Made by a program: the position numbers and the translations under genes
Origin: an uncultured bacterium
GTDB lineage: Bacteria; Muiribacteriota; UBA6191; CAZXTJ01
Reading direction: 5' to 3'
Assembly (NCBI GenBank): GCA_964643655.1
Contig: CAZXTJ010000169.1
Location: forward strand, 1 to 13,738
Length of the DNA stretch: 13,738 nt
In this document: one piece after another, positions 1-13,738 of the stretch
Layout: every line of letters begins with the position of its first letter
How positions within the stretch are numbered: the first letter of the stretch is position 1
The notes under the pieces: generated by a model
Told to the model about the DNA's origin: nothing
The model's input: the letters and a program-made list of their open reading frames with translations, nothing else
Databases searched by the model: none

Positions 1-1955
1 GCGCCATACTGCCCCAACCACATAAAAGGAACCAAATCACTGTCTATGCGATGAAAGATGAGGTAATACTTCAGCACTACCCAAGGCTGTAAAACTTCAT
101 ACCATTTGGTCAGTTCGTTGACTTTTAAAAGACGAGCAGAAAAGAGCAAGGGTGCCAATGCAGCAGCTTGTTTACCCTGTTGAACGAGATTGCGCTCCTT
201 CAATCGTCTCTCCATTTCCTTCCGTGCTTTTTGTCGGCTCTTGTGCAAACGAGCATTTTCTTGTGACCTAACATTGCGAAACTTCTCCATTCCATCGCGC
301 AAGGAATCTATTTCACCGGCAACAGAAGAGAGAGATTGGAGCAAAGAAACGTTTATTCCTTTAGTGAGACGTCTATTGTCCAAGACAGATAGTTTGGGTA
401 ACAAAGTCTCCAAACGCTCTTTTAATATCTCTACTATTTCAACACGACGTTCACCACCACCGCTCAATCTCGTTACGATGGTAATGGCATGGCAATCGAT
501 GGGCAGCTCGGCCAATTGGACGGACATTGAGTCGTCTTTGTTTCTTTTGGCTGCCAATCTTCTTTCGCCCACAGTCTTGGAGCTAATGAATACCTCTGCC
601 ATTCCTTCTGCATTGGCTTTCCAATGAAGACTCACATCCTTGCCTTCTCGATGTGTACGCGCCGCCAGAAGCTCCAATTTAAAGGCGGCTGTTTTGATGC
701 GCCTAGGCAAGGTCGTTGAGCCATCAGGGAAAACTATCTTCATAGCATAAGGTTGATTGTCAGCCAAACCATCTATGATGACCTCATGCTTTTTTGTTGG
801 CTCTTTTCCATTTTTCCCAGCATATGTGAGTGGTCTGACACCACCTTCCAACTGAACCCACGTTCGATAAGCTTGGTGGCTCTGCCAGCTTATGACCATT
901 CCACCGGGCCTAGAGTTAGTGGCCAACATGAAGACGTCATAGTCCTTTTCCTCTTCGCCTGTTTGGTTGGCGATGAAAACACCCAAAAGTACACCGAGCA
1001 AAATGATGATGGCCAAGAGACCGTAGGTCGACTGTGGACCCTCTTCAGGTGGTGGGAGGCTCTTGTTCACAGCTTCAGCGCTCGTTGAGGAATCCAATTC
1101 AGGAGGAATGGTCGAACGGGTGAAAGGAGTCTTTTTAGCTTCGAGCAATGAACAAAGGGCTTTGCCATCAGCGGGGCGCTTTGTCTGCTCTATTGAGCAG
1201 CACTGCTGCAATATTTCTGCAAATTCGCCAAATATTTCTTTCTTACAAACAATAGGGTTGCAGACACCTGAAGCCAAGGAGCGGATGAGCTGTTTCCCAC
1301 TCTGGCCCTCTCGTTCGAAAGGATGCAAACCCGTGGCTGCGTAATAGACGACCAAACCTGCTTGAAAGACATCTCCTGCAGCCGTGAAGTCTTCTCCTCG
1401 CAAAACCTCTGGTGGAGTAAAACGAAGAGTGCCCAAGACTGCACCTTCAGCAGTGAGCGGAGTCCAGTCGACTGGTCGAACGAGACCAAAGTCGACAAGT
1501 CGTATATTGCCATCTGGTTCCAAAAACACATTGTCAGGCGTTATGTCTCGATGGAGTATTCGCCCATCGTGAAGATAACGCAATGCATCAGCCAATCTGC
1601 AGAGCAGAGTTTTTACTGCTTTGGGTTTTAAGGGACCAGATTGAGGTATGACTTTGGACAATGGGGAACCACGAAGAAATTCCATAACGAAATATGGCGG
1701 CGATACATCCAAATCAGCCTGATAAATGTTGACCAACTGAGGATGACGAAGACCTGCCAAGACTGAGACTTCTCTATCCAATCGTGCTCGGGCTTCGGGA
1801 TTTTTTGCATAATGGTCGTGGAGAACCTTGATGGCCACATCTCTTTTGAGCTCATTGTCTTTCGCTCGATAAACGGTACCCATGCCCCCTGAACCAAGGC
1901 ATTGGTTAATGACATACCGGCTGCCATCGCCTACCTGAGGGAAATTCTCAGTCAC
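1..1955 (-). CDS. Hanks-type Ser/Thr protein kinase, single-pass membrane protein with a large extracytoplasmic domain. The GTG start is inside the window; the C-terminus runs off the window start, so the CDS is partial.
   Basis: Translating the minus strand by hand gives one uninterrupted frame from 1955 down to base 1 (about 651 codons, no stop). The ORF track omits it because it never reaches a stop in-window. N-terminus reads V/MTENFPQVGDGSRYVINQCLGSGGMGTVYRAKD. Kinase motifs seen: Gly-rich loop GSGGMG, VAIKVL, catalytic loop LHRDITPDN, VDFGLV, TPPEV. A transmembrane helix (LLAIIILLGVLLGVFIA) is encoded around + coordinates 960-1015. Beyond it lie a beta-rich region and a charged coiled-coil-like region. 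A GTG at 1955..1953 directly follows an in-frame TGA. All + strand ORFs listed in 190..1631 are antisense artefacts of this gene. Confidence 0.88.
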   Translation of the reverse strand, partial: MTENFPQVGDGSRYVINQCLGSGGMGTVYRAKDNELKRDVAIKVLHDHYAKNPEARARLDREVSVLAGLRHPQLVNIYQADLDVSPPYFVMEFLRGSPLSKVIPQSGPLKPKAVKTLLCRLADALRYLHDGRILHRDITPDNVFLEPDGNIRLVDFGLVRPVDWTPLTAEGAVLGTLRFTPPEVLRGEDFTAAGDVFQAGLVVYYAATGLHPFEREGQSGKQLIRSLASGVCNPIVCKKEIFGEFAEILQQCCSIEQTKRPADGKALCSLLEAKKTPFTRSTIPPELDSSTSAEAVNKSLPPPEEGPQSTYGLLAIIILLGVLLGVFIANQTGEEEKDYDVFMLATNSRPGGMVISWQSHQAYRTWVQLEGGVRPLTYAGKNGKEPTKKHEVIIDGLADNQPYAMKIVFPDGSTTLPRRIKTAAFKLELLAARTHREGKDVSLHWKANAEGMAEVFISSKTVGERRLAAKRNKDDSMSVQLAELPIDCHAITIVTRLSGGGERRVEIVEILKERLETLLPKLSVLDNRRLTKGINVSLLQSLSSVAGEIDSLRDGMEKFRNVRSQENARLHKSRQKARKEMERRLKERNLVQQGKQAAALAPLLFSARLLKVNELTKWYEVLQPWVVLKYYLIFHRIDSDLVPFMWLGQYG

Positions 1956-3849
1956 CCTTCAACATCCCGAGCTTCTCGAGTTTTTTATAGAGAGTCGTAC
2001 GGGACATACCAGTCTCTCGAGCTACTGCACGAAGTTTGCCCTGAGAGCGACGAAGAGCGCGTTCGAGGAACACTTTGTCAAAAGCTTCGCGTGCTTCTTC
2101 GTATTCAGGTGGCAACTCTTCTACAGCTAAAGCAGGACCAGCTGAATGGCTGACAAAGGAAGAGCTTCCGCCACCTGCAGCACCAATGGGTAAACTGGCT
2201 GCTGAAACGACTTTGCCTCTTTCGATGACAACGGCTCTTTCGATGGCATTGCGTAATTCGCGGATGTTACCAGGCCATGCATAGGTCTTCAGTGCCTTTT
2301 GCGCATCTTTGGAAAACTTTTTCAGTTTGCGACCAAATCGAGTGGCAAAGGTTTGCAGAAAGTGTTCGGCTAGGGGCACCACATCTGCACCTCGTTCGCG
2401 CAGCGGTCTCAATCTCAGTCTGAAGACATTGACGCGATAATAAAAATCTTGTCTGAAGGTGCCATCTTGCACCTGCCGTTCGAGATCGGCATTTGTAGCG
2501 CAAACCAACCTGATGTCCAGAGGGATGTCATCTTGGCCACCGAGGCGCCTAATCGTTCTCTCTTGAAGGACACGAAGCAATGTAACTTGAACGTCCAAAG
2601 GTAACTCACCAATCTCGTCCAAGAACAAAGTGCCACCAGAAGCAAGTTCGAAACGACCCAATCTCTTTTCCAAAGCACCAGTGAAGGCACCTTTTTCCGC
2701 ACCAAAAAGCTCTGCTTCTATGATGTCTCTAGGCAGAGCAGCACAGTTCACGGCAATGAATGGACCACTAGAGCGACTAGAACGCAAGTGCAATTCGCGA
2801 GCAACCATCTCTTTGCCTGTGCCTGTTTCACCTGTGATTAGCACAGTAATGTCTTGTGCAGCTGCAGCGTCAATGTGTTCGATGAGTTCTTTTGAAGCAG
2901 GACCATCACCTGTGACGAATACATTGCTGTCATTTTCCAAACGCCTCATGGCAGCAATTGTTGTCGTAGCTTCTACCAGTTGGCGTCTTGTCTGTTGGGC
3001 CGCAACGAGCTCTGCAGCGAGGCCAGTCACAACCTCGAAGAATGGCTGCTGTTCTTCAGTCCATGGCCTATCGGTACGTTTTTTATCGAGATAGATGACA
3101 CCAACTGCACGTTGATTGGCCAACAAAGGCGCACATAATATGGCGCGCGGCATGGTGGAAACGGCTAGGCTAGGAGCACCTGCACAACGAGAATCTCGCA
3201 GAGAATCTGCAATTGCCAAAACTTCTTTTTCTTCTAGAGCGTTGGCACAGACAGTCTTTGATATTGCCTCGCACTCTTCACCGTCGACCAATCCACGAGC
3301 AGCAACTCGTACCAAAGTATGGCGCTGTCCTTCCAAGAGGACAAAACCTCGCTCTGCGTCTACAAAATCGATGAGTCCATCTAGAAGACGCTCGAGAACC
3401 TCCTGCGGTTTTGAAGAGGAACGCAGCCCGTCAATAAAAGCTGAGAAGGGCTGCCAATCAGTGGACTTTTTCCCGCCACTGTTCAACTGAATATCTATGG
3501 CGCTTTCGGCAGTGATCTTTTTGGCACGAAGAGCATTGGCCGAAGCCAAAGGGCTGTCGCTCATTTGTATTTGCAAGTCGTCGATGACAACGACATCCCC
3601 TAAGTGAAGAGCGGCATCTCTCACTTTTTCGCCATTGAGATAGGTACCCATGGAGCTCTTGAGGTCGCGAATATGATATTTGCCACCTACCTGGTAGATC
3701 TCGGTATGTCGGCGAGAAACACGTGTACCAAAGAGCATGACGTCGCAGTCGTCGCCCTTGCCCAAAACAGTACTTGCTGAAGTGAGCTTAACAGCGTTAA
3801 AAAAACGTTTCGGTGAATCTGTCGTCCCAATGAGGAGCCACCAAACCAC
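1948..3849 (-). CDS. Sigma-54-dependent transcriptional activator (enhancer-binding protein) with N-terminal FHA domain, central GAF domain, AAA+ sigma-54 interaction domain and C-terminal Fis-type HTH
   Basis: 633-aa ORF. FHA hallmarks are present: VSRRHTEI (SxxH) and TYLNGEKV (NG). GAF-like region spans about residues 150-300. AAA+ motifs: Walker A GETGTGKE, GAFTGA motif (EKGAFTGA), Walker B LFLDEIGEL. C-terminal HTH: RAVARETGMSRTTLYKKL. The GTG start at 3849 has AAGGAA 6-11 nt upstream. Its stop overlaps the downstream kinase start (GTGACTGA). Confidence 0.92.
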   Translation of the reverse strand: MVWWLLIGTTDSPKRFFNAVKLTSASTVLGKGDDCDVMLFGTRVSRRHTEIYQVGGKYHIRDLKSSMGTYLNGEKVRDAALHLGDVVVIDDLQIQMSDSPLASANALRAKKITAESAIDIQLNSGGKKSTDWQPFSAFIDGLRSSSKPQEVLERLLDGLIDFVDAERGFVLLEGQRHTLVRVAARGLVDGEECEAISKTVCANALEEKEVLAIADSLRDSRCAGAPSLAVSTMPRAILCAPLLANQRAVGVIYLDKKRTDRPWTEEQQPFFEVVTGLAAELVAAQQTRRQLVEATTTIAAMRRLENDSNVFVTGDGPASKELIEHIDAAAAQDITVLITGETGTGKEMVARELHLRSSRSSGPFIAVNCAALPRDIIEAELFGAEKGAFTGALEKRLGRFELASGGTLFLDEIGELPLDVQVTLLRVLQERTIRRLGGQDDIPLDIRLVCATNADLERQVQDGTFRQDFYYRVNVFRLRLRPLRERGADVVPLAEHFLQTFATRFGRKLKKFSKDAQKALKTYAWPGNIRELRNAIERAVVIERGKVVSAASLPIGAAGGGSSSFVSHSAGPALAVEELPPEYEEAREAFDKVFLERALRRSQGKLRAVARETGMSRTTLYKKLEKLGMLKGD

Positions 3850-3965: not shown

Positions 3966-4508
3966 ATGAAAATGACCATTGAAGAACGGTTGACTCAGCT
4001 CGAGAAGAGCAATCTCAGATGGCAACGTTTGACTGCAATACTCTGCCTTCTTCTGGTCACTCTGGGCATTATGGGAGCAAAACATATTGGCCGGACAAAT
4101 GTTGCCATTGGCCAATTGCGGCTGCTCAACAGAGAAGGCAAACTTCGTGCAGTCCTTGGTGTAACCAAGAATGATGCTGCTTATCTGGCTTTGCGCGACA
4201 AAGAGGGAAAAGTACGTTGTCATTTGAGCCTCGACAAAAAAGGAACTCCGAGCCTAACGCTGAATGATGAAAAGGGAGAGAAACGGTGCATTCTCAGTCT
4301 CTTTGACAAAGGCTGTAATCCCAGTATGATTTTTTATGATGGCGAACAAAAACGTCGTCTCTCATTGACTACAGTGCCCCCTGCCCTCATTTGCAACAAT
4401 CACAATGGCAAACCTAGAGCAGTTCTAGGCGTGAGCAAAACAGGTGCCGGAGCATTTTCCTTGGAAGACGTTCATGGTCGTCCCATAGTCTTCAAACGTC
4501 TTAAATGA
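3966..4508 (+). CDS. Hypothetical membrane-anchored protein built from tandem repeats of about 22 residues (consensus approximately L-x-D-K-E-G-K-x-R-x-x-L-S-L-x-K-x-G-x-P-S-L)
   Basis: 180-aa ORF with AAAGGT about 9 nt upstream of the ATG. N-terminal coiled segment, then a hydrophobic helix LTAILCLLLVTLGIMGA. After that come 5-6 degenerate repeats: GKLRAVLGVTKND / GKVRCHLSLDKKGTPSLTLND / GEKRCILSLFDKG / QKRRLSLTT / GKPRAVLGVSKTG. I recognise no known family. Confidence 0.6.
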   Translation: MKMTIEERLTQLEKSNLRWQRLTAILCLLLVTLGIMGAKHIGRTNVAIGQLRLLNREGKLRAVLGVTKNDAAYLALRDKEGKVRCHLSLDKKGTPSLTLNDEKGEKRCILSLFDKGCNPSMIFYDGEQKRRLSLTTVPPALICNNHNGKPRAVLGVSKTGAGAFSLEDVHGRPIVFKRLK

Positions 4509-4514
4509 TTCTCG

Positions 4515-4847
4515 CTATTTTGTTGGAGGAGTCACTTTTGGAGCTGTTTTAGAACCTTTGGGAAGAGGAATATTAGGCAGTATTCCTTTTTTCTGGAGCA
4601 ACTGAGCAGCTCTTTTGACTTTAGGATCTTTCAATGCTGCCATAATTTGAGGCAAACCAACGCCTGGCTTGAGCAAACCAGCTTGCTGAATGATTACTGC
4701 AGCTTGTTTGACCTGTGGATCTTCTGAATGTAATGCCTGAGCTATGGCCGCTCTAATCTGGTCGGGATTAAAACCAAAGGCAATAACGTTAGAAGCGCTC
4801 AGGAGCAGGAGGGCCACGGCCAAAAGTAGTCCAGTGCGTCGTAACAT
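4515..4847 (-). CDS. Small secreted protein with signal peptide and two HEAT/PBS-lyase-like repeats (DPxVKxAAxxLQxxGxL)
   Basis: 110-aa ORF. Strong RBS: AGGAGG lies 7 nt upstream of the ATG at 4847. N-terminus MLRRTGLLLAVALLLLSASNVIA is a typical Sec signal peptide. Repeats: DPQVKQAAVIIQQAGLL and DPKVKRAAQLLQKKGIL. Pro/Lys-rich C-terminal tail. It sits 96 nt downstream of MVP on the same strand, with no obvious terminator hairpin between them. Confidence 0.65.
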   Translation of the reverse strand: MLRRTGLLLAVALLLLSASNVIAFGFNPDQIRAAIAQALHSEDPQVKQAAVIIQQAGLLKPGVGLPQIMAALKDPKVKRAAQLLQKKGILPNIPLPKGSKTAPKVTPPTK

Positions 4848-4943: not shown

Positions 4944-7478
4944 TTATTCACCACTCTCTTCTTGCTCTTTTTCCTCTTCAGTCAAGGCTTTCAGCCCTTC
5001 AGCCAAAGGACCAGTGCCTGCTATCATTTTGCTCAATGCATCCATACCTCCTCGGCCCAAGAGCAAACCAAGGCCTCCTGTGGCTTGAGGAAGATGTTCG
5101 GCCAGTTTTCCTGCCAAAGCTTGATTTCCATGCGTTTTTATCGCTGCCACGAGGTCTGGTTGTATGGCTTCGAAACGTTTCACGAAAGCCTCTGCTTGAG
5201 CACCGAGTTCCTGTAATCGCAGCACCATTTGAGCTTCCTCGAACTGTATCTGTTGGTCTCTCGCGCTCTTTTGTCGGGCTAATTCAGCTTTTGTAATTTC
5301 GTCTCTCGTTGTCTGAGAAGCCAGACGACCGCTGAGCTCAGTCTCTGTTTCCCGTGACTGAGCATTGATTTTGGCCAAATCGATACCCAATTGCAGATTC
5401 ACCTCTTCTTGTTGCAATAAGAGCTCTTTTTCTTTGGTGGCTGCTCTTGCCTGGGCAAGTTCTTGGCGAATGCGTTCCTCTTCACGAACCGTTTCCAATT
5501 CTTTTCGTGCCATAGCCAAACGGAGGGACTGTTCCACTGAATCCTTCTGACTAGAACGAACCATCTCTGCGATGGCTGAGTCGCCAATCTCCAATTTGCC
5601 AAACTCAACGTCATAAACACGCATGCCATTTTCTGGGAACAATCGACCTGGACGTTTACCTTCGACAGTTTCTCCCAAGATTGCATTTCTCAAGATATCG
5701 ATGTAATTCGTGTAAAACTCCTGAACGCCATACTTTTTCACTACATTGGCCACGAGTGATCGTGTGTGATCTGTGAGGAATTTCACGTAATTCTCTACAT
5801 CGAACCATTTGCTCTTGTCCCCTTCGAAGTCAACTCGGAAAGAGAGTGGTATTCGCACTGAGACAAAGTCTCCAGTTTCCGCAGCAATCAAATCAGAGAC
5901 CTTGTTTGCTTTGACACGCAGATAAACATCTTTTCGCAATTGATAGTCAGACTTTGGAGTTCCTGTTGATAGCTCGATGACCTCTGGTAACTCGTCATAT
6001 TGCAACAACACTGTCTGTGGTCCTTCAATAACTCTGCTTTCACCAGTTTTTGAAACAACTTTGATGGCATAGCCCGTATGTACTCGCACAGTAACGGCAC
6101 CATCATATTTTGTTTTCAGCTGTATGGAACGAGGTGGGACGTATTCGTTGGAACGAGTGAACTCGTCAGCCGTCAATTCGGGCTCTTCACCACTTCCAGT
6201 TTCATCGTTATTGAGTAAATTGATGCCTTTTTTGCTTCTTGCTTTCCTGGCAGTAGGATTGAAGATTCCTTCCAATCCCAAAAGGGAGAGATTGTGTGAA
6301 ACTGCCTCTTCATTACCGGGATAAAGTAACTCGACGATGGGGATGGGCAGAGTCCGTCTGACGATGACTTCATATCTGGGATCAGGCAAGTACATTTTGG
6401 GACCCAAGACCAACTTTACGTCACCAGTCTCCTTGGAGAGCACATAACGGGCTTCTCCTTTGGGTATTGCCACAGCCTGCTGTAGCAGCTGGTCACCACC
6501 ATATTTGATGATTGCATGTTCAGGACGTGGATAATATATTTTCTGGTCTTTTCCCGTAATGAAGAGCTCTTCACCCTCAGCATATTTTTTGCCATCTTCC
6601 TCATAGGGTTTGATCACTTTTACATACAAACCACGGTGTGTCTCGAGCTCAATGGCCTTTATCTTCCTCTCACCTTTGTGAGTTTCATGGAAAGACTGAG
6701 TTGGCCGAGGAAAAACGACGGCTGGTCCATTGACATACTCTTTGGTACCATTCTCGTCTATGAGAATACAGGTTTCCAGCTGTTCGAGAGTGACGGCGTC
6801 GCGTACATATTTACCACACTCAGGAACGACTTCCATTCCCGTAGGTGGAATGTAAAAAGAAACCTCTGTGCCTTTCACAACGAGAAGCTGACCTGTAACC
6901 AAATCTGGTGTGGAAGCATCGGGGAAAATTTCACCCTTGTTTTCATCTGTAATCTCTTCAGTAGAATTGGTCTGTTTTTTGAGGACTGCATTCTTCCAAT
7001 TTGATTTGGCCACTTCACCATTAATGACGCGAACGACTAAATATTGGTTAGAGCGGAGAATGTGGCCATCTAGGCAAGTGGCTGATTGACCTGGGTAAAG
7101 AGCAAAAGTTGCGGGACCTGGTATATTGACTCTTCGCCCCATTGCCAGTTCCACAGAGCCCTGTTTTCCTCTTGATGGGTGGCGATGTTCGTCTTCTTCA
7201 ACAGGATTTTGTAAAACGATATATTGCCCCTCTTTTGCTGCAGGCCACATTGTTACTGCTGATTTGAGGAGGCAACGTTGGAATGATTGAGTTTTGCTAT
7301 CAAAACGAACTGGATTGTCTGTCTCACCAATACTCGTCTTTGTTGGTCCTACGTGCACTTCCACAGTACCATCGGCGCCATTTTGCACGAGGGCTTGTTC
7401 TCCTTGAGCCAGAACGAGATCGCCGCCTCGCTCTCTCATTTCGCGAATATCCCTGTCATACTCTCTGTTGCTTCCCAT
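4944..7478 (-). CDS. mvp: Major vault protein (MVP) homolog: vault shell protein with N-terminal vault repeat domains, a shoulder (SPFH-like) domain and a C-terminal cap-helix coiled coil
   Basis: The maximal ORF is 4944..7505 (853 aa), which begins with TTG. An ATG at 7478 preceded by GAGAGGA (about 8 nt) is the more likely start. The product aligns by eye along its full length to eukaryotic MVP. N-terminus: [39 protein letters not shown] against human [30 protein letters not shown]. Repeated vault-repeat-like units of about 55 residues follow. Shoulder: [42 protein letters not shown] against [62 protein letters not shown] against [20 protein letters not shown]. A long Q/E/A/R-rich cap-helix follows. 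C-terminus: [19 protein letters not shown]...[11 protein letters not shown] against [20 protein letters not shown]...FGLLGMGPEG. Acidic C-terminal tail. Confidence 0.85.
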   Translation of the reverse strand: [844 protein letters not shown]

Positions 7479-7526
7479 TTTGTTGTCCTCTCTCGGTGCT
7501 GCCAATATTGTCTTTTCTTGTTCATA

Positions 7527-7542
7527 TGCAATCTTCTCGCCG
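7527..7542 (-). promoter_or_regulatory. Weak sigma-54-like -24/-12 candidate upstream of MVP
   Basis: The minus strand reads cGGCGAgaagaTTGCA: GG/GC spacing is correct and the -12 TTGCA is perfect, but the -24 hexamer matches only 3 of 6 (CGGCGA against TGGCAC). It lies 48 nt upstream of the ATG at 7478. If real, it argues against the TTG start at 7505. Confidence 0.25.
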
Positions 7543-7640: not shown

Positions 7641-7691
7641 TTGACAATAAGGAGAGGATCTTTGACATCTTGGGTCAAAGTCGCCTAGTTT
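7641..7691 (+). promoter_or_regulatory. Sigma-70-like promoter candidate for the nitroreductase/flavoprotein operon, with a palindromic operator-like element overlapping its -35 and spacer
   Basis: Two TTGACA hexamers (7641..7646 and 7662..7667). The second is followed after 18 nt by TAGTTT (7686..7691). The palindrome CTTTGAC-N7-GTCAAAG (7660..7680) spans that -35 and spacer. An AGGAGGG RBS and the ATG at 7717 lie downstream. Confidence 0.35.
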
Positions 7692-7716: not shown

Positions 7717-8217
7717 ATGGACGCGATCCTGACAAGACGCAGCATAAGAAAATTCACAGAGCAAGAAGTTACTGAGGAACAGTTGACTTCCATATTAAAA
7801 GCAGCAATGGCGGCTCCATCAGCTGGTAATGCCCAACCCTGGCAATTCATCGTCATTCGAGACAAGATAACCATGGAGGCAGTGACGGGTTTCCATCCCT
7901 ACGCCAAAATGTTGCCCGAAGCTTCAGTTGCAGTTGTCGTATGCGGAGATCTTTCATTGGAGAAATTCGAAGGTTTCTGGGTACAAGACTGCTCGGCAGC
8001 AATTCAAAACATTCTTTTGCAAGTAACAGCCTTGGGGCTTGGGGCCGTGTGGCTCGGAGTACATCCCATTCAAGAACGTGTCGTCGGTGCCCGAGAACTC
8101 TTTGGTATTCCCACCAATGTCATTCCTCTGGCCATCATTCCTATTGGGTATCCAAATGAAAGTAAAGAATCCGTCGACAGATATCAAGCTGACAGAATTC
8201 ACGATGAACGTTGGTAG
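7717..8217 (+). CDS. Nitroreductase-family flavoprotein (NAD(P)H:FMN oxidoreductase fold)
   Basis: The ORF track starts it at 7690, but AGGAGGG lies 8 nt upstream of the ATG at 7717, giving MDAILTRRSIRKF. Canonical nitroreductase N-terminus (RRSxRxF, then EEQLxxILxAAxxAPSAGNxQPWxF). About 166 aa. Confidence 0.85.
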   Translation: MDAILTRRSIRKFTEQEVTEEQLTSILKAAMAAPSAGNAQPWQFIVIRDKITMEAVTGFHPYAKMLPEASVAVVVCGDLSLEKFEGFWVQDCSAAIQNILLQVTALGLGAVWLGVHPIQERVVGARELFGIPTNVIPLAIIPIGYPNESKESVDRYQADRIHDERW

Positions 8218-8815: not shown

Positions 8816-10768
8816 TTAGTCGGCCATGTAAGTTTTCAGTAGCGGAGTCAATCGATCATATTCTGATTCTAAGACAGAAAGCGTTTCTGGAGCGCCATCC
8901 AAACATCGGTGTCGCCCCATATCACATAAACGACTGGCCATATCCCCTACTCCGTGGGCACCAATATATCCTGCTGCACCTTTGAGTGAATGAGCCGCTT
9001 CATGCATCTCGTCAACATTGGCCCGCCCCACAGCAATTCTCAACCTCTCTATTCTCTGAGGAGCATCAGAGAGAAATGTGCTAATGAGACGATGAAGCAA
9101 TGAACGATTGCCATTGACATGACGTAGGGCTTCTTCAGAATCAAATGGAACTGAGACTCGTTTTTTACAAGATGTAGTCTCAATCTTAGCCTTTTCTGAG
9201 TTTTCCTCGCCTGGTCCTGCAGCCTCTTCAGTGGCAATGATGAGCTCTTTGGCAATGACAGGTTTGTTGAGAATGGAGTCGGCTCCAGCTGCAATAATTG
9301 ATTCTCTGCGGCGCATATCTGTATTGGCCGTTACGGCAATGATGGGCGTATAACGACTCATGGTAGATTCCAGCTCACGCATTCTCAGAGTCGTTTGTAC
9401 ACCATCGAGAACAGGCATGGAAAGATCCATCAAAATGATATCAAAAACTTCTCTTTTAAAGAGATAGAGAGCTTCTGCTCCATTCTCGACGACAGAGACC
9501 TGATGGCCACGAGCATTCAAAATCTCAAAGGCAAACTCACTATTGACTGGATGATCTTCAGCAATGAGAACTTTGAGCGGACGATGACACTCTTTTTCCA
9601 CTTGGCCTGTGACCAAAACCACATCTTCCATTTTTGGTGGATGATCCAATACTTGCTCAAAGGTTGTAATCAACTCCATACCTATGATTGGACCAATGAG
9701 AAGATGAATGTGGTCCAGTCTCAAAAGAGCATCCATGATTTCCATAGCTTTTTCTGGACAGAGGGAAATTATCAAAGGTAAGCCAGGTGAGATTCGGCGT
9801 ATCTCGTTGACCATATCACGGATATTTTTCGCATGGATACCAACGCCATCAATATAAGCTGCACCATATTGCTGTCCTTCCACTTTGCTACATGCCAATA
9901 AAGTTTTTACCTCTCGCAATGAACCCACAAAAGTTGATGTTGCCCCGCGGAAGACGAGAAGTTCATCAATCCATTGGCGATGGGATGCACAGTGCGAGAC
10001 TATCATGGTTTTATGACCAACGAGAGAGTTGCGTTCAACCACTTCTCCGTAGTTATTTTCAAACTGAGTCAGTCTTATCTCATATCGCAAGTCATGCTCT
10101 CTTGCAGAAAAACCTGTTGGGACCTTTGCAAACAAGGGTGACGAGATTGGCAGAGCAAAATCACTGATCAGACGAGCTCCATTGTCATCACATTGAACAC
10201 TGAACAATATCTCTATTTCTTTGGCGCTCTCTAGGTGCATGATTGTGGATATTGCCTTTTTTAGCTCTCCTGCCAGGTTTGGTGCACTCACAGTCACATT
10301 TGTGGCCGTTGGAGAAGAAAAACTTGGACGCAAAATTTTTCCATGTTCACAGCCATCAGGTGCCAAGGACCAGATGACCTGCCCCACGAGACTATCCAAT
10401 CTTTGCGGCGCACAAGAATAATCCATTGTAGAAAGAAGAGCTTGCGATAGATTTGTCATGGCTTTGGAGAAGATGCGAGACTCCCAAAGAATGTCTCTGT
10501 TGATAGCTCCTTGAGCAAGTTTTGTCATTGTCAGCAGTGCAGACTTCGTTTCAACGTCCAAACCCTTCCTCTTTTTATCATGTCTCTTCTTCTTTGCATG
10601 AGTTACAAAAAACTTACTCCTCTTGAAAAATGCCACTGCCGTGGCTATGGCACAGCAGGTCATAGAAAGGGCAAATGGTGAATTGTAGAGTGCTATGGCG
10701 AAAGCCACGAGGGAAATTGTCATGAGCAACATGCGCTCGAGTTTTGTGCTCTCACGAGAGATTGTCAT
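8816..10768 (-). CDS. Membrane protein with receiver (REC) and C-terminal histidine phosphotransfer (HPt) domains. The N-terminal and central region has no recognisable histidine-kinase H-box or ATP-binding boxes. Putative phosphorelay intermediate.
   Basis: 650-aa ORF. AAAGGAG lies 5 nt upstream of the ATG at 10768. Two N-terminal hydrophobic segments: MLLMTISLVAFAIALY and ALSMTCCAIATAVAFF. Intact REC at about residues 398-510: KVLIAEDH...ILMDLSMP...AVTAN...LNKP. HPt at about residues 545-640 with HSLKGAAGYIGA. Residues 240-390 look like a degenerate pseudo-receiver. The gene ends 4 nt from the convergent flavoprotein gene. Confidence 0.75.
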   Translation of the reverse strand: MTISRESTKLERMLLMTISLVAFAIALYNSPFALSMTCCAIATAVAFFKRSKFFVTHAKKKRHDKKRKGLDVETKSALLTMTKLAQGAINRDILWESRIFSKAMTNLSQALLSTMDYSCAPQRLDSLVGQVIWSLAPDGCEHGKILRPSFSSPTATNVTVSAPNLAGELKKAISTIMHLESAKEIEILFSVQCDDNGARLISDFALPISSPLFAKVPTGFSAREHDLRYEIRLTQFENNYGEVVERNSLVGHKTMIVSHCASHRQWIDELLVFRGATSTFVGSLREVKTLLACSKVEGQQYGAAYIDGVGIHAKNIRDMVNEIRRISPGLPLIISLCPEKAMEIMDALLRLDHIHLLIGPIIGMELITTFEQVLDHPPKMEDVVLVTGQVEKECHRPLKVLIAEDHPVNSEFAFEILNARGHQVSVVENGAEALYLFKREVFDIILMDLSMPVLDGVQTTLRMRELESTMSRYTPIIAVTANTDMRRRESIIAAGADSILNKPVIAKELIIATEEAAGPGEENSEKAKIETTSCKKRVSVPFDSEEALRHVNGNRSLLHRLISTFLSDAPQRIERLRIAVGRANVDEMHEAAHSLKGAAGYIGAHGVGDMASRLCDMGRHRCLDGAPETLSVLESEYDRLTPLLKTYMAD

Positions 10769-10802
10769 GAGGCTCCTTTCATTTTCGAACTTTTAAAGGC
10801 TA

Positions 10803-10818
10803 TGCAATCTCTCTGCCA
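10803..10818 (-). promoter_or_regulatory. Sigma-54 (-24/-12) promoter candidate for the membrane REC-HPt gene (8816..10768), divergent from the one above
   Basis: The minus strand reads TGGCAgagagaTTGCA: GG and GC have correct spacing and the -12 TTGCA is perfect. The predicted TSS is about 24 nt upstream of the ATG at 10768, with a AAAGGAG RBS in between. Confidence 0.55.
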
Positions 10819-10874
10819 CAGGTGAATGTGCCTCTCTAGAACGAAAGCCCTTTCCAAAGGCAATAGATGAGGCT

Positions 10875-10905
10875 TTTCACTATGGCAATGTGAAACAAGT
10901 GTCAC
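10875..10905. promoter_or_regulatory. Inverted-repeat cluster between the two divergent sigma-54 promoters: candidate enhancer (UAS) for an EBP
   Basis: TTTCAC-tatggcaat-GTGAAA (10875..10895) overlaps GTGAaacaagtgTCAC (10890..10905). There are also two GGCAAT copies. A T-rich tract (10906..10925, possible bend or IHF site) follows, toward the + strand promoter. Confidence 0.4.
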
Positions 10906-10929
10906 TTTTTGTCTTCTTTTTCAGCTTCG

Positions 10930-10947
10930 TTGCGCATTTTGCGCATT
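10930..10947 (+). repeat. Perfect tandem direct repeat TTGCGCATT x2, abutting and overlapping the first base of the -24 element
   Basis: TTGCGCATTTTGCGCATT is visible directly. Each copy contains the palindrome TGCGCA. The last T is T1 of TGGCAC. Confidence 0.5.
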
Positions 10948-10962
10948 GGCACGAAGCATGCA
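10947..10962 (+). promoter_or_regulatory. Sigma-54 (-24/-12) promoter candidate for the response-regulator/pseudo-HK operon
   Basis: TGGCACGaagcaTGCA: the -24 element TGGCACG is perfect, and GC is at the exact -12 spacing (aTGCA against TTGCA). It lies about 46 nt upstream of the ATG at 11008, leaving room for a 5' UTR of about 35 nt with a GAGGAGG RBS. Confidence 0.6.
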
Positions 10963-11007
10963 GATGGGCGACTAGGGGAATCTGAGGCAGTCCTTTGAGG
11001 AGGAAGA

Positions 11008-11604
11008 ATGAAAATATTGATAGCCGATGATGATGCCATGTCCCGCCAACTGCTCAGTGGTTTGGTCACTGAGTGGGGTCACGAACCAGTTACGGCCGAA
11101 AATGGTGAAGAAGCTTGGCAAATTCTGACTGAGCAAAAGCTGCAGTTCATCATCGTAGATTGGATGATGCCCCGCCTAACGGGAGTAAATCTCTGTGAAA
11201 GAATACGAGCAAGTGAACTTGATCAATATATCTACATCATTCTTCTCACTTCACGAAAAGATGCAGATGAAATCGTGACCGGTCTCAATGCAGGTGCAGA
11301 TGATTATGTGACAAAACCCTTTGATGCTCGGGAGCTGGAAGTGCGCCTCAATGTTGGTATTCGTGTACTCGATTTGGAGCGCAGATTAGAGGAAAGAGCT
11401 CGCCAAGCAGAGGAACAGCTTCAGCAGATCAACAAGCTGGAAAGCCTCATTCCAATTTGCTGTGAATGTCGACAAGTGCGCGATGACAAGAATTACTGGC
11501 ACAAAGTAGAAACTTATCTAGCAAAACGCACACCAGCAAAATTCACACACACCTTGTGTCCTCATTGCTACAACAAAGCTATGGCCGAGATTGAAGCAGC
11601 TTAA
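11008..11604 (+). CDS. Response regulator: canonical receiver domain, then a coiled-coil linker and a C-terminal Cys/His-rich zinc-ribbon-like domain
   Basis: 198-aa ORF. RBS GAGGAGGAAG lies just upstream. REC residues: ADDD, IIVDWMMP (phospho-Asp), LLTS, VTKPF. C-terminus: IPICCECRQVRDDKNYWHKVETYLAKRTPAKFTHTLCPHCY (C-C-x-C ... C-P-H-C). The stop TAA overlaps the next gene's ATG (TAATG). Confidence 0.85.
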   Translation: MKILIADDDAMSRQLLSGLVTEWGHEPVTAENGEEAWQILTEQKLQFIIVDWMMPRLTGVNLCERIRASELDQYIYIILLTSRKDADEIVTGLNAGADDYVTKPFDARELEVRLNVGIRVLDLERRLEERARQAEEQLQQINKLESLIPICCECRQVRDDKNYWHKVETYLAKRTPAKFTHTLCPHCYNKAMAEIEAA

Positions 11605-13738
11605 TGAAAAAAAGGTCTATTCATAGGTGGTTGGACGAAGTAGCTCGCTCTGGAGACACAAAATCCTGTTTGGCAGTTCTAAAAGAACTAGTCAACTCAC
11701 TACCTGACTACTTCGAACACAGCAAGGAGACTGCTGTCAGACTCATCCATGATGACCAAAATATAGAAACACAAAAATTTTGCAACACAAAATCCAAACT
11801 GCAGTTTCCCATTTGTGATGGAAACAAAGTACGAGGTTCTTTGGAAGTCTGCTATCTTCAAGACTTTCCTCTGGCCGACGAAGGTCCCTTTAGAGAAGAA
11901 GAAATTGAGATAGTAAAAACAGCTGCCCGCATTGCTGGTTTTGCCTTAGAACGTTGTCGAATGTTTGCAGAAAGACATCAACTGAAGGCTTCCGCAAAGG
12001 GTTATGCCCACACGAGTGGTCAAGTCATTGCTGCACTTCGTTATCAAATGAGAGCTCCCCTCAATGGCATCTTGGGTTTTGCAGAAATGCTTCTTGAAGA
12101 TCAGCTCACTCAAGAGCAAAGAGATGCTGTCAATGCCATTCAATCTGGTGCCGACTCCGTCCTCGACATAACAGATTCGATTTTGGATTATGCTCGTCTC
12201 GATGCTGATGAATTGGAACTGGACAAGAAAGAATTCTCTCTTTCTGCCTTAGTGAATGGGCTCACAGCTTCAATCGAAAAACGAACAGGTCGTTTGATTG
12301 ATATCAAAAGTGAGCTGCCACCCAAACTGAGTTCAGTTATCGGTGATAGCAGACGCTTGCGGGAGGCTCTGGAGAGCTTGGTTTCTTATTGCGCTTCATT
12401 GGATGTGGAAAACACAACAAAAGCCAACATCTACGTTGAACAAACTGACGATACTCTTGACCTCAACATGGAGGTCTATGGTCCACATGTAATTCACTCT
12501 TCCCTTTCTGAAGAGCAATTGTTCAATCCCTTCGAAGGAAAAGCGGAGTATGACATTCCAGAGAAGGCTGCCTTGGAATTGGCCATTGCACGTGGTTTGT
12601 CACGACAAATGAATGGCGATCTCATTCTGGACAAAGTGGATGACAAGGTCATTTTTCGCCTTTTCGCAAGATTACCACGACCTTCAGCCGAAGAAAATGC
12701 TGGGGCAAATCATGCACCTGACGCATCATTAAAAATACTCGTTGCAGATGACAGTAAAGTCATTAGGGTCTTGGCCTCGAAGATATTGACGGGTCTGGGC
12801 CATCAAGTTGATTTGGCTGAAGATGGTGCTCAAGCCCTTGCCAAAGGTGCTGAAGACAAACACGATCTCATTTTGATGGATCTGAACATGCCCAACATGT
12901 CAGGTTTTGAAGCTACGAGAGCCCTGCGAGAGAAAAAAATCAAAACACCCATAGTCTCAATCTCATCTTCTGCTCTGGCAGAGGATAGACGTCAAAGCTT
13001 GGAAAGCGGCATGAGTGGTTTTGTCACTAAACCATTCAAACGTAACGATCTTCGTGCCGTCCTTTCCGAACACTGTGGTGTTCAGTCTCAAGCAGATAAA
13101 AAAGAAGAACCACTCAAAGTACTCATCATCGATGATGACAAAGTCATGCGAAAACTAGTGCGTATGGTCGTGAAAAGAACCTATCCCAATGCTGTTGTCA
13201 AAACTGCAGATGATGGATTGGAAGCTTGTGCACTCTTGGGTAGCTTCTTACCTCGATTAGTCATTACCGACATCATCATTCCTGGTGTAGATGGTGTTGC
13301 TGTAGTCCGCTTCATCAATGAACGAGAACGGTACAAAAACACAGCTGTCGTCGCCATGAGTTCCCTTGGAGTCGATGATGATAGAGTGAGAACTCTCAGA
13401 AGACTGGGTGCAAAACAAATACTACCTAAACCCTTTGAGTGGAATGTCTTTTCACAGGCTGTCAGTGCTGCACTGAATGATGATTCTCTTTCAGCAGATA
13501 CCTTGGAAACAGAGAAACCCAAAATTGTCCCCATGCCCATTCCCTTTGACGCAGGCACAACAGAAGTACCCATTTGGGACATCAACAAAGGATTACGCTC
13601 TGCCGGCGGTTGTTCTAGTCTCTTGAGTTCAGTCGTTGGTGTATTTCTCGATGATGTTCGAGTACGTTTTGATGCCCTCGTTGATGGTATGGAGCAAGAG
13701 GACCTTTCCTGTGTACAAATGCAATCACACACCTTAAA
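11604..13738 (+). CDS. Hybrid sensor histidine kinase-like protein with a degenerate (probably catalytically dead) kinase core, two receiver domains and a C-terminal HPt domain. Partial: the 3' end runs off the window.
   Basis: A hand-translated open frame runs from the ATG at 11604 (overlapping the response-regulator stop) to the window end, with no stop. The ORF track omits it. N-terminal 130 aa are GAF/PAS-like. The HisKA-like helix reads AALRYQMRAPLNGILGFAEMLLED. The Tyr codon at 12042..12044 sits where the phospho-His of the SHELRTPL motif belongs. HATPase_c-like region: IGDSRRLREALESLVSYCASL (N-box Asn replaced), G1 box EVYGPH, G2 box AALELA in place of GxGLGL. REC1 at about 12732..13080 (KILVADD...LILMDLNMP...TKPF). 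REC2 at about 13117..13450 (KVLIIDDD...LVITDIIIPGVDG...LPKPF). HPt begins near 13560 and ends at the window edge inside the QSHTLK motif. Confidence 0.8.
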   Translation, partial: MKKRSIHRWLDEVARSGDTKSCLAVLKELVNSLPDYFEHSKETAVRLIHDDQNIETQKFCNTKSKLQFPICDGNKVRGSLEVCYLQDFPLADEGPFREEEIEIVKTAARIAGFALERCRMFAERHQLKASAKGYAHTSGQVIAALRYQMRAPLNGILGFAEMLLEDQLTQEQRDAVNAIQSGADSVLDITDSILDYARLDADELELDKKEFSLSALVNGLTASIEKRTGRLIDIKSELPPKLSSVIGDSRRLREALESLVSYCASLDVENTTKANIYVEQTDDTLDLNMEVYGPHVIHSSLSEEQLFNPFEGKAEYDIPEKAALELAIARGLSRQMNGDLILDKVDDKVIFRLFARLPRPSAEENAGANHAPDASLKILVADDSKVIRVLASKILTGLGHQVDLAEDGAQALAKGAEDKHDLILMDLNMPNMSGFEATRALREKKIKTPIVSISSSALAEDRRQSLESGMSGFVTKPFKRNDLRAVLSEHCGVQSQADKKEEPLKVLIIDDDKVMRKLVRMVVKRTYPNAVVKTADDGLEACALLGSFLPRLVITDIIIPGVDGVAVVRFINERERYKNTAVVAMSSLGVDDDRVRTLRRLGAKQILPKPFEWNVFSQAVSAALNDDSLSADTLETEKPKIVPMPIPFDAGTTEVPIWDINKGLRSAGGCSSLLSSVVGVFLDDVRVRFDALVDGMEQEDLSCVQMQSHTL

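Follow-up and report, generated by a model that had tools for sequence, protein, structure and literature searches.

Two divergent putative sigma-54 promoters and a conserved central element between the operons of a phosphorelay in an uncultured bacterial lineage

How could two signalling operons that are transcribed away from each other across a short intergenic gap be induced together? The question is raised by a 13,738-nt stretch of DNA from an uncultured bacterium (hereafter, the window), in which a 239-nt gap (positions 10769-11007) separates two oppositely oriented signalling operons. On the minus side lies the gene for a 650-aa membrane protein carrying the Pfam domains Response_reg and Hpt (8816..10768, minus strand; hereafter REC-Hpt), which contains a BarA-like remnant (a partial NCBIfam match to BarA) and has no HisKA or HATPase domain in Pfam and NCBIfam searches. 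The plus-side operon is headed by a gene for a 198-aa response regulator (RR; 11008..11604, plus strand) that consists, as judged by Pfam, alignment and a structure model, of a REC domain, a long helix and a Cys/His-rich C-terminal domain. Its second gene encodes a hybrid kinase (HK; 11604..13738, plus strand) with HisKA, a sub-threshold HATPase_c (14.8 bits) and two REC domains; it overlaps the RR stop codon by 1 nt and runs off the window. Both start codons carry Shine-Dalgarno sequences: the minus-side ATG at 10768 is preceded by AAGGAG (10778..10773) and the plus-side ATG at 11008 by GAGGAGG (10997-11003). Since the products of all three genes belong to a single multistep phosphorelay, a pair of promoters firing outwards from the gap would switch all of them on together.

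Some features of these proteins deserve mention in their own right. The phosphorelay proteins encoded at 11604..13738 (plus strand) and 8816..10768 (minus strand) look catalytically odd. The C-terminal part of the RR (residues ~147-190) contains a Cys/His motif of about 45 aa, PIC-x2-C ... YW ... F-[ST]-H-x2-CP-x-C, which is invariant in the 25 homologs sampled out of 4,837 search matches and matches no Pfam or NCBIfam model; RR relatives are present in metagenome-assembled genomes of many phyla.

An initial annotation of the gap had proposed divergent sigma-54 promoters flanking an inverted-repeat enhancer, and both of the 16-mers on which this proposal rests are readily found. The minus-strand box, TGGCAG-N5-TTGCA (TGGCAGAGAGATTGCA, 10818..10803), lies upstream of the REC-Hpt gene, and the plus-strand box, TGGCACG-N4-ATGCA (TGGCACGAAGCATGCA, 10947..10962), upstream of the RR-HK operon. 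The invariant GG and GC dinucleotides are indeed at canonical spacing, with exactly 10 nt between them in both boxes, and the two elements end 34 nt (minus) and 45 nt (plus) before ATG codons that each have a Shine-Dalgarno sequence. With the C of the -12 element at 10804 on the minus side and at 10961 on the plus side, transcription would be predicted to start at ~10792 and ~10973, yielding leaders of 24 and 35 nt, respectively.

The initial annotation had suggested scoring the two sites with a sigma-54 weight matrix. Our matrix covers 16 positions and was rebuilt from the published consensus of Barrios et al., so that its absolute bit scores are approximate. The two boxes tie for the best score, 16.48 bits each, among the ~27,500 positions on both strands of the window. 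The third-best match (4449..4434, 13.05 bits) was set aside as a chance occurrence, being intragenic and not among the top matches of the related contig L082 (see below). Dinucleotide shuffles yield 0.07 matches per window at the score of the boxes, with two or more in 1 of 200 shuffles, and real genomes behave similarly: 10 positions at or above 16 bits in 2.3 million (160 unrelated loci), i.e. ~0.12 per window. On the real-genome background, the joint probability of two correctly oriented matches of at least 16 bits within 100 nt of facing start codons is ~2e-7. Both boxes also fit the simpler pattern TGGCA-N7-TGCW, which occurs three times in the window against 0.41 expected, as well as the motif of the E. 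coli RpoN holoenzyme, TGGCACnnTTnTTGC (PMC8743547). In a 19.8-kb locus of the assembly that also contains L082, no position scores above 12.8 bits with the sigma-54 matrix. A scan of positions 10600-11150 for consensus sigma-70 promoters returned no site, and an Rfam scan of the gap returned no family, only a meaningless sub-threshold snoRNA match.

To see whether the boxes are maintained, we turned to relatives, which were found by exact-protein look-ups, with the related contigs taken from ENA assemblies. One near-identical contig (L001, from ENA sample ERZ1644706) differs from the window by a single SNP in the gap. A 75-kb syntenic contig (L082) represents a sister lineage, with its RR 88%, REC-Hpt 58% and the putative activator discussed below 76% identical to those of the window; it holds the one REC-Hpt ortholog, and this protein thus diverges much faster than the RR (58% vs 88%). 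The HK of L082 has an Hpt domain in addition to HisKA/REC/REC. A third lineage is represented by five short contigs (L164-L168), of which L164, L166 and L168 come from project PRJEB15404, which sampled a microcosm of biofilms on plastic and ceramic in a hypersaline lagoon. Finally, in L083 the RR is 74% identical and has hypE-hypA-hypB as its upstream neighbours on the same strand. The footprint reported below is the three-lineage alignment of the divergent gap (window, L082 and L164); with L083, three to four lineages are covered in all.

The two boxes stand out as conserved islands. In the three lineages, 14 of the 16 columns of the minus box and 12 of the 16 columns of the plus box are invariant, the latter including the 11-nt invariant run ATTGGCACGAA, against 32 of the 139 columns in the rest of the gap (i.e. 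outside both 16-mers, the two central blocks described below and the two start-proximal ribosome-binding stretches). The substitutions that the boxes do carry are confined to positions that are degenerate in the consensus, namely the spacer, -15/-14 and the final W. Within 16.6 kb of L082 no other match scores as high as the two orthologous sites, which reach 17.32 bits (minus) and 16.03 bits (plus). L083, despite its different gene context, keeps the plus-side promoter: the best match of that contig, TGGCACGTCCTGTGCT (15.2 bits), lies 55 nt upstream of the RR ortholog start. Taken together with the scores and with the result of the sigma-70 scan, this supports the proposal of divergent sigma-54 promoters, and we infer that transcription of both operons depends on sigma-54.

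Could the matches nevertheless be due to chance, or be conserved for an unrelated reason, with the genes using non-sigma-54 promoters that went unrecognised? The matrix is approximate, and rpoN is not among the genes on the contigs examined. Given the joint probability of ~2e-7, the consensus-compatible substitutions in three to four lineages and the presence nearby of an activator with a GAFTGA motif, we regard this explanation as extremely improbable.

Sigma-54 control does not extend to the RR family as a whole. We scored the upstream regions of 80 RR homologs drawn from reference genomes, all of them distant (at most 49% identity); only one has a sigma-54 site of at least 12 bits, which is below background, and the arrangement is therefore lineage-restricted. 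A metagenome scan for closer RR orthologs returned only relatives at or below 49% identity.

Several further sigma-54-like sites were seen in passing. In L083 (2600..2800), where the RR-HK operon follows hypE-hypA-hypB and has its own sigma-54 box at 2725-2740, the box is preceded by two copies of the direct repeat CGTGACGG, spaced 21 nt apart, in place of the central blocks of the window. L082 has a third good site, AGGCACAATAGTTGCT (15377..15392, plus strand; 14.5 bits), which coincides in part with the end of a Ser/Thr kinase gene; a PAS histidine-kinase gene begins 56 nt downstream of it. A weak candidate site, CGGCGAGAAGATTGCA (7542..7527, minus strand of the window; 9.7 bits), is located ~50 nt upstream of a vault-homolog gene; L082 shares its GG and TTGC at the equivalent position (4612..4597, minus strand), but the -24 box is poor.

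What lies between the two boxes? The footprint contains two further conserved stretches, which we call blocks B and C. Block C (AGGCTTTTCACnATnGCAATGTGA, 10870..10893, no strand assigned) is invariant in 22 of its 24 columns across the three lineages and contains the dyad TCAC-N9-GTGA (10877-10893). The dyad is imperfect; it is kept across lineages, and its inner 10-bp palindrome, CATTGCAATG, is present in two of the three. Block C spans -78 to -101 relative to the predicted minus start and -80 to -103 relative to the predicted plus start. Measured from its centre, the minus GG is 65-66 nt away and the plus GG 67 nt away in every lineage. The GG-to-GG distance is likewise near-constant (132, 133 and 132 nt across the three lineages), so the spacing is constrained even though the intervening sequence is not. 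Activator sites usually lie ~80-150 nt upstream of the start, and a position of -78 to -103 is within this usual range; many activators use two or more sites. Only a single dyad of this kind is evident, with no second copy. As judged from its conservation and position, block C is probably the shared activator site of both promoters.

Block B, TTTCCAAAGGCwATA (10851..10864, no strand assigned; -59 to -72 from the minus start), is invariant in 13 of 14 columns, is unrelated in sequence to block C, and could be a second activator site, a site for an architectural protein or another operator. The window sequence of block B can form a hairpin, which L082 and L164 have lost or never had. Each block is unique both in the window and in L082, and neither is present upstream of the L083 ortholog. 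A search of the window, L082 and L083 for more copies of the blocks, of the half-site GTTTCAC or of TTGCGCATT returned no meaningful ones. Block C shows no similarity to the known activator sites with which it was compared, and comparison of the conserved blocks by eye with the IHF consensus WATCAANNNNTTR, with NorR-like GT-N7-AC and with NifA-like TGT-N10-ACA yielded no convincing match.

The two blocks, read together on the minus strand, also resemble a weak sigma-70-type promoter of the form TTGCmA-N17-TATwGC, which could provide basal REC-Hpt transcription through the sigma-54 site; the conservation of the blocks would then reflect promoter hexamers and not an enhancer. The hexamers are TTGCCA-N17-TATTGC in the window and TTGCAA-N17-TATAGC or TATTGC in the sister lineages, with a 17-nt spacer in all three. 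In every lineage the last base of the -10-like hexamer is C instead of the near-invariant T, which is why our consensus scan was silent on it, and, unlike in a sigma-70 promoter, 24 and 14 contiguous nt are conserved, would-be spacer included. Furthermore, the conserved sigma-70-like promoter that the window does possess, TTGACA-N18-TAGTTT (7662..7691, plus strand), looks canonical. We therefore consider a sigma-70 origin of the blocks highly unlikely. As to the canonical promoter itself, it lies upstream of a nitroreductase/FMN-reductase gene pair, which implies that the real start of the nitroreductase is the ATG at 7717 rather than the TTG at 7690.

The initial annotation had described a richer architecture of upstream activating sequence, bend and -24/-12 elements. 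Direct reading and a repeat finder locate every one of its components (both 16-mers, the two palindromes, the T-rich tract and the tandem repeat) where it had placed them; what separates them is conservation. The first palindrome, TTTCAC-N9-GTGAAA (10875-10895), falls in block C, and its TCAC-N9-GTGA core alone is conserved. The second, GTGA-N8-TCAC (10890..10905), is lineage-specific: beyond its GTGA just 1 of 12 columns is conserved, and it is absent in L082 and L164. The only gap difference between L001 (aligned on its reverse strand) and the window, G10901T, converts GTGAAACAAGTGTCAC into the perfect 16-bp palindrome GTGAAACAAGTTTCAC. As for the T-rich tract (~10906..10925), regarded as bendable, 4 of 20 columns are conserved and the sister lineages have short A/T runs elsewhere. 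The perfect tandem TTGCGCATT repeat (two copies, 10930..10947, plus strand) that abuts the -24 box is also lineage-specific, with 4 of 17 columns conserved and unrelated sequence in L082 and L164. Being unconserved in the sister lineages, the second palindrome, the tract and the repeat carry no evidence of function and are not upheld as enhancer or bend features. Nor are the 6-bp and 4-bp inverted repeats beyond chance on their own: by a rough estimate ~0.4 perfect 6-bp inverted repeats with a 0-12-nt spacer are expected in 130 bp, and the repeat finder listed no inverted pair reaching 8 nt. Thus, of the enhancer, the half that lies in block C is retained and the second palindrome is not; of the overall architecture, the boxes and a central conserved element stand while the bend features fall, and block B (10851-10864) had been missed.

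Which protein might act at block C? Neither flanking operon encodes an AAA+ activator: the RR consists of REC and the Cys-rich tail, and HK and REC-Hpt lack Sigma54_activat. The gene that follows HK in L082 is encoded on the other strand. The window does encode an enhancer-binding protein 7 kb from the gap (1948..3849, minus strand), with FHA, GAF, AAA+ (Sigma54_activat, with GAFTGA), AAA lid and HTH_8 domains according to Pfam; GAFTGA and Walker A are both readable in the translation. L082 has a syntenic ortholog, 76% identical, at the same place with respect to the cluster. The HTH is almost identical in three orthologs and different in a 52% paralog; a conserved DNA target would fit this pattern, which is however no proof of one. 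FHA-GAF sigma-54 activators form a sizeable paralog family in this lineage, and because there are several such paralogs the neighbouring protein is only a guess as the activator; it is our best one, the most likely candidate at hand, held with low confidence. The locus of one paralog (L169) was considered as a similar cluster and rejected, its context being unrelated and devoid of a strong sigma-54 site.

According to a further explanation, the promoters are real but blocks B and C form an operator at which something else acts, such as an architectural protein, a repressor or, in a feedback loop, the Cys-rich RR, the enhancer lying elsewhere or the activator working without specific binding. 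In line with this, B and C differ in sequence, C is only a weak dyad, the L083 ortholog keeps a sigma-54 box without either block, and no activator gene is found in either operon. On the other hand, block C is exactly central and its spacing varies by no more than 1 nt, it occupies -78 to -103 with respect to either predicted start, and the neighbouring activator possesses an HTH_8 domain that is conserved among orthologs. As to feedback by the RR, its C-terminal domain has no demonstrated DNA-binding fold: the AlphaFold2 model is of low confidence, with a pLDDT of 52-66 in this domain, too low for a fold search aimed at DNA binding. All considered, we judge an operator role for the blocks to be unlikely, though it is the alternative that we take most seriously.

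The reading that we prefer is that of two back-to-back sigma-54 promoters with an AAA+ activator at block C reaching both of them by looping, to which we assign a probability of roughly three in four, going by sequence and conservation. Its core, namely a divergent pair of sigma-54 promoters separated by a regulatory element, has strong in silico support from the scores and orientation of the boxes, the footprint in three to four lineages, the fixed spacing, the lack of a consensus sigma-70 promoter in the scanned region and the nearby GAFTGA activator. Mechanistically, sigma-54 RNA polymerase would form a closed complex at each -24/-12 element, and the AAA+ enhancer-binding protein would bind the 24-nt block C, ~66 nt upstream of each -24 box. 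Block B might assist in activator binding, or may serve the minus side as a second or architectural site. The bound activator would contact either polymerase through DNA looping and open the promoter at the expense of ATP, and the outcome would be a coordinated induction of three phosphorelay components from a single input.

Ser/Thr kinase genes adjoin the FHA-GAF paralog in L169 (7937..12074) and sit within the cluster in L082 (10920..15387), hinting at phospho-threonine control of FHA-GAF activators. An FHA domain points to regulation by the Ser/Thr kinases encoded beside this gene family in both contigs. One may go further and propose that the single central dyad is the only place at which one FHA-GAF activator docks to fire either promoter, thereby coupling eukaryote-like kinase signalling to the dosage of this phosphorelay, an unusual one with a degenerate kinase domain. 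We consider this extension speculative and rather doubtful.

The arrangement has precedents. Similarly to zraP/zraSR of E. coli and Salmonella, sigma-54 promoters are located on opposite strands of one short gap, and one of the two drives a two-component operon. In 2001 Leonhartsberger and colleagues reportedly found that ZraR binds between the two promoters. The difference is that one of the zra operons itself contains the gene for ZraR, a response regulator of the NtrC type that autoregulates, while here neither operon encodes the activator, and the closest candidate, an FHA-GAF protein, is 7 kb away. In the zra system ZraR controls both divergent sigma-54 promoters (PMC4987338).

A resemblance to hyc and hyp lies in the candidate activator, which, like FhlA, contains a GAF domain and is not a response regulator. 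The hyc and hyp operons are divergent, as are the operons of the window. They are sigma-54-dependent operons under FhlA, which recognises the palindromic site CATTTCGTACGAAATG (PMC4987338). The genes controlled differ (a phosphorelay here, hydrogenase genes there), as do the sequence of the site and the additional FHA domain of our candidate; the hyp genes that adjoin the L083 ortholog may be a coincidence. With a single sigma-54 promoter served by an NtrC/NifA-type enhancer the locus shares the GG-N10-GC core, an upstream site ~80-100 nt from the start and a 17-bp dyad, the NtrC box also being 17 bp long (TGCACCAnnnTGGTGCA; PMC8743547). Unlike at such promoters, one central site would serve both directions, there is one clear dyad instead of tandem sites, and no conserved IHF-like site or bend lies between site and promoters.

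The rest of the window holds several genes worth recording. An 844-853-aa protein with MVP_shoulder, Vault_3 and Vault_2 domains (Pfam; 4944..7505, minus strand, and 2006..4549 in L082) represents a bacterial counterpart, by homology, of the major vault protein of eukaryotes; its gene keeps its place in the sister lineage (synteny), and NCBIfam has no match for it. The vault-homolog gene is followed by one for a small, secreted-looking protein of 110 aa (4515..4847, minus strand) with a signal-peptide-like N-terminus. This gene and a 180-aa one (3966..4508, plus strand) are small conserved genes that match neither Pfam nor NCBIfam. At the left edge, a 432-aa open frame (3..1298, minus strand) runs off the start of the window and has no Pfam match.

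For sigma-54 transcription in general our analysis leaves knowledge unchanged: the arrangement is a known one, well supported here and unsurprising to a specialist. Its main use is in annotation, since it predicts promoters, start sites and the co-regulation of three signalling genes, and the gap could serve as a compact natural bidirectional sigma-54 cassette. If confirmed, the locus would present a clean, symmetric and constrained case of two sigma-54 promoters relying on one central site in an uncultured lineage known from saline biofilm and sediment metagenomes, and would link an FHA-GAF activator to the expression of a multistep phosphorelay.
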